A stretch of DNA of 64,000 nt, taken from the IMG/VR virus record IMGVR_UViG_3300044675_001501, positions 64,001 through 128,000 of that record. One strand, given 5' to 3'. Of this stretch, positions 57,582 to 57,699 are shown in pieces. The notes beneath the pieces were generated by a model. It was not told the DNA's origin and made no database searches. It was given only the letters and a program-made list of their open reading frames with translations. Made by a program: the position numbers and the translations under genes. Within the stretch, counting starts at the first letter, position 1; each line of letters opens with the position of its first letter. The DNA is from a virus. Its lineage: Duplodnaviria > Heunggongvirae > Uroviricota > Caudoviricetes.

Positions 57582-57699
57582 CAACAGGATACTTTTTTAG
57601 TGCACTAACCAATTGTGCTATTTTTCCAATGGAAAAAGTTGGACTCGAACCAACAACCTCTCGCTCTATATGCGAAAATGTTTTTGCTGCAAGTATCCT
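57582..57699 (-). ncRNA. Scaffold RNA D, permuted tRNA module (T-arm, closed acceptor stem, D-arm)
   Basis: AGGATAC-TT-GCAGCAA..GTTGG-TTCGAGT-CCAAC-TTTTTCC-ATT-GGAAAAA-TA-GCAC-AATTGGTTA-GTGC..GTATCCT-GTTG. Confidence 0.8.

Follow-up and report, generated by a model that had tools for sequence, protein, structure and literature searches.

A 64,000-nt stretch of viral DNA (bases 64001-128000 of the 169.5-kb record IMGVR_UViG_3300044675_001501; hereafter, the window) carries, among tRNA genes on its minus strand, an RNA element in which a whole tRNA-like fold is encoded in permuted order and is held at its two ends by a conserved stem that we call the handle. We consider it probable that this element is a noncoding RNA of the Y RNA type, in which the permuted tRNA would be the cargo and the handle would dock on a Ro60-like ring protein. 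The record was estimated to be complete, its T4-type baseplate proteins indicated a T4-like myovirus, and the public runs in which the DNA was present were lake and freshwater metagenomes.

A Permuted tRNA Fold between Two tRNA Genes

The element exactly fills the 129-nt gap between tRNA-Leu(UAA) (57706-57789), whose encoded CCA ends at 57706, and tRNA-Ser(UGA) (57487-57576), the first base of which is 57576 (table 1). The gap sequence begins with AGUUU, ahead of the 5' strand of the handle. The unconstrained minimum free energy (MFE) fold consisted of exactly the proposed helices (-34.3 kcal/mol, z = -3.2), and ARAGORN called no tRNA at the element in its native order. A first-pass annotation of the sequence had described, in this order, a hairpin, a T arm, an acceptor stem and a D arm; each part was present at its place on the minus strand and coincided with the MFE fold. 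The 7-bp acceptor stem closed by a 3-nt loop without CCA was confirmed (the loop is AUU), and the D arm that comes last has the canonical A14, A15, G18, and G19. The hairpin, which had been left unnamed, could be refined to an anticodon arm.

Table 1. Features of the RNA Element and of Related Loci in the Window.
Feature	Coordinates	Strand	Basis
Whole RNA element	57577..57705	minus	ARAGORN and Rfam tRNA calls, MFE fold, sequence
Handle stem, 5' strand UAGGAUACUU, pairs with 57585-57594	57691..57700	minus	MFE fold; covariation among sister elements
GCAGCAAAAACA, single-stranded handle motif GCAGCAA and A-rich linker	57679..57690	minus	Alignment A2, about 100 variants
Anticodon-arm-like hairpin UUUUCGC-AUAUAGA-GCGAGAG; U33, G37, "anticodon" AUA	57658..57678	minus	MFE fold, ARAGORN after rejoining
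Variable-loop GUU before the T stem	57655..57657	minus	ARAGORN after rejoining, tertiary-pair analysis
T arm GUUGG-UUCGAGU-CCAAC	57638..57654	minus	MFE fold, Rfam, alignment
Acceptor stem, 7 bp, AUU-closed, UUUUUCC-AUU-GGAAAAA; no CCA	57621..57637	minus	MFE fold, covariation
U8-A9 connector UA	57619..57620	minus	U8 in 66/71 relatives
D arm GCAC-AAUUGGUUA-GUGC; A14, A15, G18, G19	57602..57618	minus	MFE fold, alignment
3' linker ACUAAAA (A26-CUAAAA), A-rich side of the handle internal loop	57595..57601	minus	Alignment A2, sequence
Handle stem, 3' strand AAGUAUCCUG	57585..57594	minus	MFE fold, sequence
Conserved 3' tail UUGUUUAU; CCUGUU spans stem end and tail	57577..57584	minus	Alignment A2
Sister handle RNA, tRNA-Gly(UCC)-like body in normal order	57383..57480	minus	Rfam tRNA 55.5 bits, model positions 3-68; handle detector
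Sister handle RNA, short non-tRNA insert	56204..56261	minus	Handle detector
Sister handle RNA, short hairpin insert	54448..54512	minus	Handle detector
Sister handle RNA abutting the start codon of the Ro60-like gene	47904..48007	minus	Handle detector
DUF2828 + DUF7788 protein, 474 aa, predicted Ro60 fold (helical-repeat ring and vWA)	46481..47905	minus	Pfam, AlphaFold2, Foldseek
Promoter-like site TTGACA-17-TATGAT, strong, just upstream of the first tRNA	58076..58104	minus	Consensus match only
Terminator-like hairpin after the last tRNA	52931-52957		Consensus match only

In the hairpin 5' of the T arm, a core stem of 5 bp encloses a 7-nt loop in which U33 is present and position 37 is a purine; it is followed by a 5-nt variable loop, AGGUU, which in the 5-bp reading of the stem occupies 57655-57659 and places U48 opposite A15 as its partner. 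Because this is the geometry of an anticodon arm with its variable loop, a complete cloverleaf is present, permuted between positions 26 and 27 (26|27). When the acceptor 5' strand, D arm, and A26 were rejoined in silico to the anticodon arm, variable loop, T arm, acceptor 3' strand, and A73, ARAGORN recognized a normal 77-nt cloverleaf, "Tyr(AUA)," in agreement with the earlier proposal that the 3' half of the tRNA precedes the 5' half. Related elements of other viral contigs, rejoined likewise, were called as Arg(UCU) (loci L064, L068, and L070), Phe(GAA) (L065), and Ser(UGA) (L056 and L071). No tRNA of the array was more than 67% identical to the rejoined sequence, and a recent origin from one of the phage's own tRNAs was thus ruled out. 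The element was also rejected as the tRNA-Tyr that the array lacks, because its relatives bear other anticodons and relatives of the phage without the element lack tRNA-Tyr as well.

Conservation and Covariation of the Fold

The relatives, chosen by handle motifs and T arm only, amounted to 106 distinct elements among the matches listed. In 58 of these, the T stem is immediately followed by a perfect hairpin of 7 bp (with loops of 2-22 nt), compared with 2.3% of shuffled sequences. The full-length MAFFT alignment (A2) was structurally inconsistent at the acceptor and D arm, and a core alignment (A4) with scripted parsing was used instead. Among 30 aligned cores, the T and acceptor stems paired in 97.5% of cells, compared with 34-44% when the strands were slid by 1-3 columns; these cores had been selected for at least six of the seven acceptor pairs, so the paired percentage is partly a result of construction, whereas the double changes are not. 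Nine of the 12 pairs in the two stems changed on both sides (87 cells), and the covariation score was 0.75 versus 0.24 in shuffles.

Conservation extended to the tertiary contacts. The Levitt pair 15:48 was G:C, A:U, or U:A in 55 of the 71 elements that could be parsed, compared with 26 +/- 3.7 after shuffling of partners, and none of 5,000 shuffles reached 55. In the same set, U8 and A14 were each kept in 66 elements and the D-loop GG in all 71. In the alignments, the T-arm positions G53, U54, U55, C56, A58, and C61 were invariant, and the T loop retained UUCRA. These results indicated that the permuted structure is conserved, together with the tertiary-pair covariation expected of an L-shaped fold. 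Loss of the permuted order in homologues had been named beforehand as an outcome that would speak against a tRNA mimic; the order was conserved, with compensatory changes, and the proposed mimicry of the tRNA elbow agrees with the retention of the elbow and L-shape nucleotides and with the covarying 15:48 pair.

The anticodon end behaved differently from the elbow. A hairpin of anticodon-arm geometry stood at this position in 30 of 82 elements with a closed acceptor, 27 of which keep U33 and R37; their anticodon-like triplets include UCU, GAA, GUA, GAU, CCA, ACG, UAG, and GUU, some in canonical loops such as CUUCUAA and CUGAAAA, and the loop of L056 lacks U33. The other 52 have no anticodon-type hairpin here: in some, a hairpin follows the D arm, and in others there is a YrlA-like pairing between the two flanks. 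On this comparison, the constant parts of the cargo are the elbow and the 12-bp acceptor/T helix; the anticodon end may be absent and differs between elements. An intact anticodon arm and acceptor loops of 2-5 nt fit the proposed origin of such RNAs from tandem tRNA transcripts.

Comparison with YrlA and Phage Y RNAs

The features by which YrlA RNAs are recognized are a Ro60 gene nearby in the same orientation, a GNCGAA(N)G motif (the presumed Ro60 site) close to the 5' end, the order T arm, acceptor-like stem, and D arm, and tRNA tertiary pairs including a compensating 15:48 pair (PMC4201824). Their L shape has been demonstrated, and they have no anticodon loop because the two ends of the RNA form the anticodon stem, as in the S. 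Typhimurium structure (bioRxiv 10.1101/312249). YrlA is also bound by Ro60/Rsr and has T54/Psi55 and dihydrouridine modifications. At a permissive threshold, the Rfam YrlA model (RF02553) aligned with the element over its full length (37.3 bits, E = 9e-7), and the same match was obtained genome-wide; the score is below the cut-off of 69 bits, and the relatives scored 33-45 bits.

The YrlA-like topology that had been suggested stood. As in YrlA, the T arm, loop-closed acceptor, UA, and D arm lie inside a stem formed by the ends; the elbow nucleotides are kept, 15:48 covaries, and no CCA end is encoded; the RNA has two modules, a protein-binding type of stem and a tRNA-like effector; and it lies on the same strand as a Ro60-type gene. 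Strict membership in the family did not stand, given the score below the cut-off and two differences. The GNCGAA(N0-1)G motif is missing, as the 5' strand reads UAGGAUACUUGCAGCAA and the handle follows the form AGG-N7-CAGCAA ... CCUGUU (some relatives have CGAAAA, located in the 3' strand instead). The anticodon arm forms a hairpin by itself, with 5-7 bp and a 7-nt loop, in contrast to the anticodon stem that the ends of YrlA form. The setting also differs: the candidate partner, a DUF2828/DUF7788 protein, escapes detection by Pfam TROVE, and the element lies in a phage tRNA operon 9.7 kb away from its gene; where YrlA loci have a TROVE gene within about 4 kb, this element has a same-strand gene without a TROVE match, although a sister handle RNA (47904-48007) abuts that gene. 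The element is best read as a tRNA mimic of the YrlA type in which the handle and the Ro60 paralogue are different and the anticodon arm is intact; protein binding, processing, and function are presumed.

Y RNA-like RNAs have been described in phages. Yrl1 and Yrl2 of Thermus phage phiLo were picked by a CGAA motif and were not described as tRNA-like, and Caulobacter phage CcrColossus is cited among phages with such RNAs and Ro60 (PMC12135203). In CcrColossus, the region preceding the TROVE gene gp139 holds an array of at least four Y-like units (L191, 2470-3440), which scored 30-42 bits on the Rfam YrlA model, all below its cut-off; as these units stand beside a true TROVE gene, the cut-off is a weak test in phages. 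The layout of a CcrColossus unit is the same as that of the window element: a hairpin UUCGA-CUGUUAA-UCGAG, the variable loop AGGUC, the T arm GUUGG-UUCGAGU-CCAAC, a closed acceptor, UA, and a D arm, followed by GCUAAAAA. The two are identical in 25 of 26 bases over the variable loop and T arm, and both phages have several units. Unlike the window, CcrColossus encodes a protein that matches Pfam TROVE and vWA_Ro60, and its units end in a different terminal module, GAGGGUGGCGYAG ... GCCNGUUCCCCCUC (also given, over the L191 array, as GAGGGUGGCGYAG ... GUUCCCCCUC). A shared cargo with a terminal module that varies with the type of Ro60 is the pattern expected if the terminal module docks the protein.

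Handle Family and Exchangeable Cargo

The handle is defined by a stem opening with AGG/CCU, CAGCAA exactly 7 nt past AGG, an A-rich 3' side, and a CUGUU tail; its consensus, AGG-N7-CAGCAA ... A-rich ... CCUGUU, was present in at least about 100 distinct variants from viral contigs, in which the tRNA-like cargo is swapped. CAGCAA was invariant in alignment A2, and across the family the stem opens in the form RRR/YYY; the window element has the stem, the CAGCAA spacing, the A-rich side, and CUGUU. The stem covaries among sister elements (GGAUUC/GAAUCC, GGAUGU/ACAUCC, and GGUUAG/CUAACC). A search of viral contigs with the outer sequences returned 13 loci with 10 distinct interiors, and a looser pattern (CAGCAA ... 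T loop ... CCUGUU) returned at least 118 loci; the spacing of the latter left out the most compact elements, that of the window included, so that the family counts are lower bounds. An exchange of interiors was seen in contig L056, where a neighbor gene is 84% identical in protein: its element occupies the same place and has the same outer sequences around a different interior, with the acceptor AUUACGC-AUC-GCGUGAU and the D arm GCUC-AUCUGGUA-GAGC.

Four sister handle RNAs were found within the window itself (table 1). In the one at 57383-57480, which was not called by ARAGORN, the cargo has a truncated acceptor of about 5 pairs that is joined to the handle. As judged by these comparisons of sequence, the RNA is composed of two modules, a constant handle and an exchangeable cargo. 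No publication was found on handle RNAs or on DUF2828 proteins linked to RNAs. A possible 220-nt handle-flanked element (48021-48240, minus strand) lies just upstream of the handle RNA at 47904-48007, and L073 (6337-6540) has a handle RNA in which a long, almost perfect hairpin of some 70 nt, placed within the acceptor loop, extends the acceptor stem.

A Candidate Ro60-Like Protein Partner

Although no Pfam TROVE match was found in the phage genome, the open reading frame (ORF) at 46481-47905 encodes a protein for which a Ro60 fold was predicted. The AlphaFold2 model, based on a 75-sequence alignment, had a pLDDT of 92 and a pTM of 0.90; prediction from the single sequence reached a pLDDT of 41. 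The top 13 matches to this model in a Foldseek search of the PDB were all Ro60 proteins (Xenopus, human, Deinococcus Rsr, and Thermus phage phiLo), with E-values of about 1e-8 and TM scores of up to 0.62 over the full length, and vWA domains ranked only below them. A phmmer search of PDB sequences with the protein gave nothing useful. The MIDAS (metal ion-dependent adhesion site) motif DxSxS is kept, with D280, S282, and S284 invariant. The ORF also matches a PHROG annotated as an RNA-binding protein, and its family is large, with 6,320 cluster representatives at E <= 0.001. About 0.9 kb downstream of this vWA gene is a gene for an AAA ATPase (phrog_2376; 44572-45624, minus strand), and pairing of the ATPase with the vWA protein is possible.

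We further addressed the link between handle and gene by co-occurrence; the samples are small and relatedness was left uncorrected. A DUF2828/DUF7788 gene lay within the fetched flanks of 33 of 128 handle loci. Among 52 control loci fetched only for their tandem tRNAs, it was present in four, all of which bear handles, and in none of 39 handle-free controls. DUF7788 was likewise found in all five large records with a handle-borne permuted tRNA compared with none of five large tRNA-rich controls, in which the handle 5' motif occurred at chance level only. The cultured Enterococcus phage EfV12-phi1, with its unrelated host, is the strongest single case for this link. Four unannotated handle units, each consisting of a leading hairpin and a handle RNA, lie between a hypothetical gene and EFV12PHI1_54, in about 800 nt directly upstream of this DUF2828/DUF7788 gene, which is annotated as "hypothetical protein" (L190, 3900-4560; MH880817.1, about 44950-45600). 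Two of the four have a T arm, a closed acceptor (in one, UGCCACC-AUU-GGUGGUA, with the same AUU loop), and a D arm, and they scored 34-45 bits on the YrlA model. By analogy with Y RNAs, the most likely partner of the window element is the Ro60-like ring protein encoded at 46481-47905.

Resemblance to Other Known Systems

Class I RNAs of dictyostelids have a stem that joins their ends with compensatory changes, an 11-nt motif (T3, C6, C9, A10, and A11), a 3' CUGU whose C pairs with a conserved 5' G, and a variable interior; they are eukaryotic, 42-65 nt long, and transcribed from their own DUSE promoter, their known binder is an RRM protein, and no tRNA-like cargo has been described for them (PMC7919456). 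By the text description in that paper only, the handle fits the end stem, the 11-nt motif (here ACUUGCAGCAA), and the CUGU (...CCUGUU) of these RNAs, and the interior varies in both. Unlike them, the window element is about 120 nt long and belongs to a phage tRNA operon. The Rfam matches for the window included no Class I family.

In the permuted tRNA genes of Cyanidioschyzon merolae, the 3' part precedes the 5' part and a linker connects the acceptor strands; their products are functional and CCA-ended after removal of the linker, for which end-joining at a bulge-helix-bulge motif is needed. The window element resembles these genes and two-piece transfer-messenger RNA (tmRNA) genes in having the 3' part upstream of the 5' part and the acceptor strands linked. 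It differs from functional permuted genes in its 3-nt linker without CCA, the absence of a bulge-helix-bulge, the handle on its ends, and an anticodon that lacks the conservation expected of a functional tRNA (AUA in the window; Arg, Phe, or Ser in relatives). Another small RNA system among the tRNA genes of a T4-type phage is that of T4 species 1 and 2 (rnaC and rnaD), stable RNAs of unknown function that are released by tRNA processing. No handle motif, permuted T/acceptor/D module, or YrlA match was found in rnaC or rnaD, and they were rejected as homologues; we know of no Ro60-like gene in T4.

Proposed Mechanism and Significance

We propose that the RNA would be made with the tRNA operon and, judging from its position, freed by the enzymes that trim the flanking tRNAs. 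In line with the co-occurrence and the Y RNA precedent, the handle would then dock on the Ro60-like ring encoded at 46481-47905. The cargo chain runs from the anticodon arm through the variable loop, T arm, acceptor 3' strand, 3-nt loop, and acceptor 5' strand to the D arm, so that the acceptor end is sealed and the break at 26|27 is the point of attachment to the handle. Having no free CCA end, such an RNA could not be aminoacylated unless first cut, and we infer, as had been suggested before, that it is nonchargeable. The L-shaped cargo would instead present its elbow, its 12-bp acceptor/T helix, and, in this subclass, its anticodon loop to a tRNA-recognizing protein, which may be tethered to the ring or withheld from real tRNAs by this bait, much as Y RNAs tether PNPase to Ro60.

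The protein that reads the tRNA-like part of Y RNAs is still unknown (bioRxiv 10.1101/312249), and the element suggests that a cargo of the same design has become joined to another handle and another family of Ro60-like proteins. The family is large, with a fixed handle and a varying cargo, and because both Pfam TROVE and the Rfam YrlA threshold miss the system, it is unannotated in phage genomes; its occurrence in cultured Enterococcus phages makes the partner and the function directly testable. More tentatively, the handle RNAs and the DUF2828/DUF7788 ring might form a second, undescribed branch of the Ro60/Y RNA system, common among phages, with the handle for docking in every case and an exchangeable panel of whole-tRNA mimics, differing in their anticodon loops, that would capture or disarm host enzymes recognizing or cutting specific tRNAs. 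This extension, which we hold to be possible yet doubtful, would include a protein partner and a role for the amoebal Class I RNAs, as the likeness to these orphan RNAs of social amoebae would, if true, point to both.

Alternative Explanations

The main rival to a docked, handle-borne mimic is a permuted tRNA gene that matures: RNase P would cleave within the acceptor loop, before G1, the 3' end would be trimmed and CCA added, and a chargeable RNA in two pieces would be held together by the acceptor and handle stems. Judging from the sequence, the 7-bp stem, G1, U-1, and A73 may permit this within what is a complete cloverleaf; in vivo, RNase P cuts the YrlA of Mycobacterium smegmatis, the only YrlA whose acceptor has 7 bp, and CCA is added to it (PMC4201824), the phage of the window also has a tmRNA gene of the permuted, two-piece kind, and U33 and R37 are kept in most of the relatives' anticodon-like loops. 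We nevertheless regard maturation as unlikely, because the acceptor loop has only 3 nt and no CCA (CCA follows the first loop base in only 4 of 71 relatives), the "anticodon" varies even among close relatives, with AUA here and no U33 in L056, and 52 of 82 members have no anticodon-type hairpin at all; in addition, the array already has canonical tRNAs for the relatives' anticodons, and no tRNA would need a conserved handle. This last feature also bears on the idea that the RNA is a free-standing decoy, whose cargo would soak up a host tRNA-cutting defense enzyme, such as an anticodon nuclease, or a tRNA-modifying enzyme with no Ro60-like protein required. The many well-formed and different anticodon loops of the relatives would suit a decoy, the sealed acceptor would bar it from translation, and its location in the tRNA operon would couple its level to the phage tRNA supply. 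However, it is the handle rather than the cargo that is conserved, the handle also bears inserts unrelated to tRNA, and it tracks the Ro60-like gene across unrelated phages; a free-standing decoy thus has only a small chance of being correct, in our judgment.

It is still less probable that the element is a passive spacer or a decaying pseudo-tRNA, perhaps aiding the folding or processing of the flanking tRNAs, with no function of its own in trans. The exact fill of the gap, the presence or absence of the element among close relatives, and the odd loop sequence of the window copy agree with a spacer, but the compensatory changes in every helix and at 15:48 indicate selection on the fold, handle RNAs are not confined to tRNA arrays but also stand immediately before the Ro60-like gene, and identity to the array tRNAs is too low for a recent copy. 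We give almost no credence to a false positive, in which two adjacent tRNA genes, or a normal-order tRNA without a D arm, would have been misread as permuted. Dimers of tRNA are known to mimic YrlA in searches, as the authors of that family warn (PMC4201824), and our first pattern scan (T loop ... D arm) did bring up ordinary tandem tRNAs at about 50 loci, namely at all of its 52 loci except L013, a near-identical copy of the window. There is also a weak normal-order Rfam tRNA match at the element (23.7 bits). In contrast, the two 7-mers pair at 7/7 here versus 1-5/7 in tandem tRNAs, and ARAGORN calls no tRNA at the element. A perfect upstream partner for the acceptor 3' strand, which the D-armless fold would require, was found in only 1 of 106 relatives, the level of chance; that fold is not conserved. 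Together with the closed acceptor of the relatives and the covariation, these results refuted the misreading.

Several observations weigh against the docked Y RNA-type element that we prefer. The element is 9.7 kb from the Ro60-like gene, beyond the 4 kb that defines YrlA loci, and its handle has neither the GNCGAA nor the CGAA motif of known Ro60 sites. Its "anticodon" AUA fits no normal bacterial tRNA, so the loop of this copy may be drifting. Three close relatives lack the element (L057, at 4300-4478, L059, and L060), tRNA-Leu being followed directly by tRNA-Ser at a spacing of only 4 nt, which suggests that it is dispensable or recently gained. Together with the lack of a tRNA-Phe gene in the same three relatives, this points to a rapid turnover of units, by gain and loss, at the head of the array.

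Genomic Setting

ARAGORN called 25 tRNA genes at 53075-58033 on the minus strand. Given the promoter-like site before the first tRNA and the terminator-like hairpin after the last (table 1), the element is probably cotranscribed with the tRNA operon. The public RNA runs that share words with the window proved to be contigs dominated by tRNAs of other organisms and were uninformative on expression, ends, and cleavage. In Aeromonas phage 31, an unrelated spacer stands between the same two tRNAs. The 26 tRNAs of the window span 19 amino acids, with tRNA-Tyr absent, and the same pattern was seen in the relatives L056 and L057; a tRNA-Phe gene is likewise absent from L057, L059, and L060. One tRNA of 95 nt (57186-57280, minus strand) combines a long variable arm, the class II shape, with the anticodon UAU and was called Ile by ARAGORN. 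Two ORFs on the minus strand lie within the array, encoding an HNH endonuclease (55136-55690) and a 2OG-Fe(II) oxygenase (53604-54167). The permuted, two-piece tmRNA gene of this phage is located at 30363-30752 on the minus strand (Rfam tmRNA_permuted, 150.5 bits), and its tag peptide according to ARAGORN is ANEEVYALAA.

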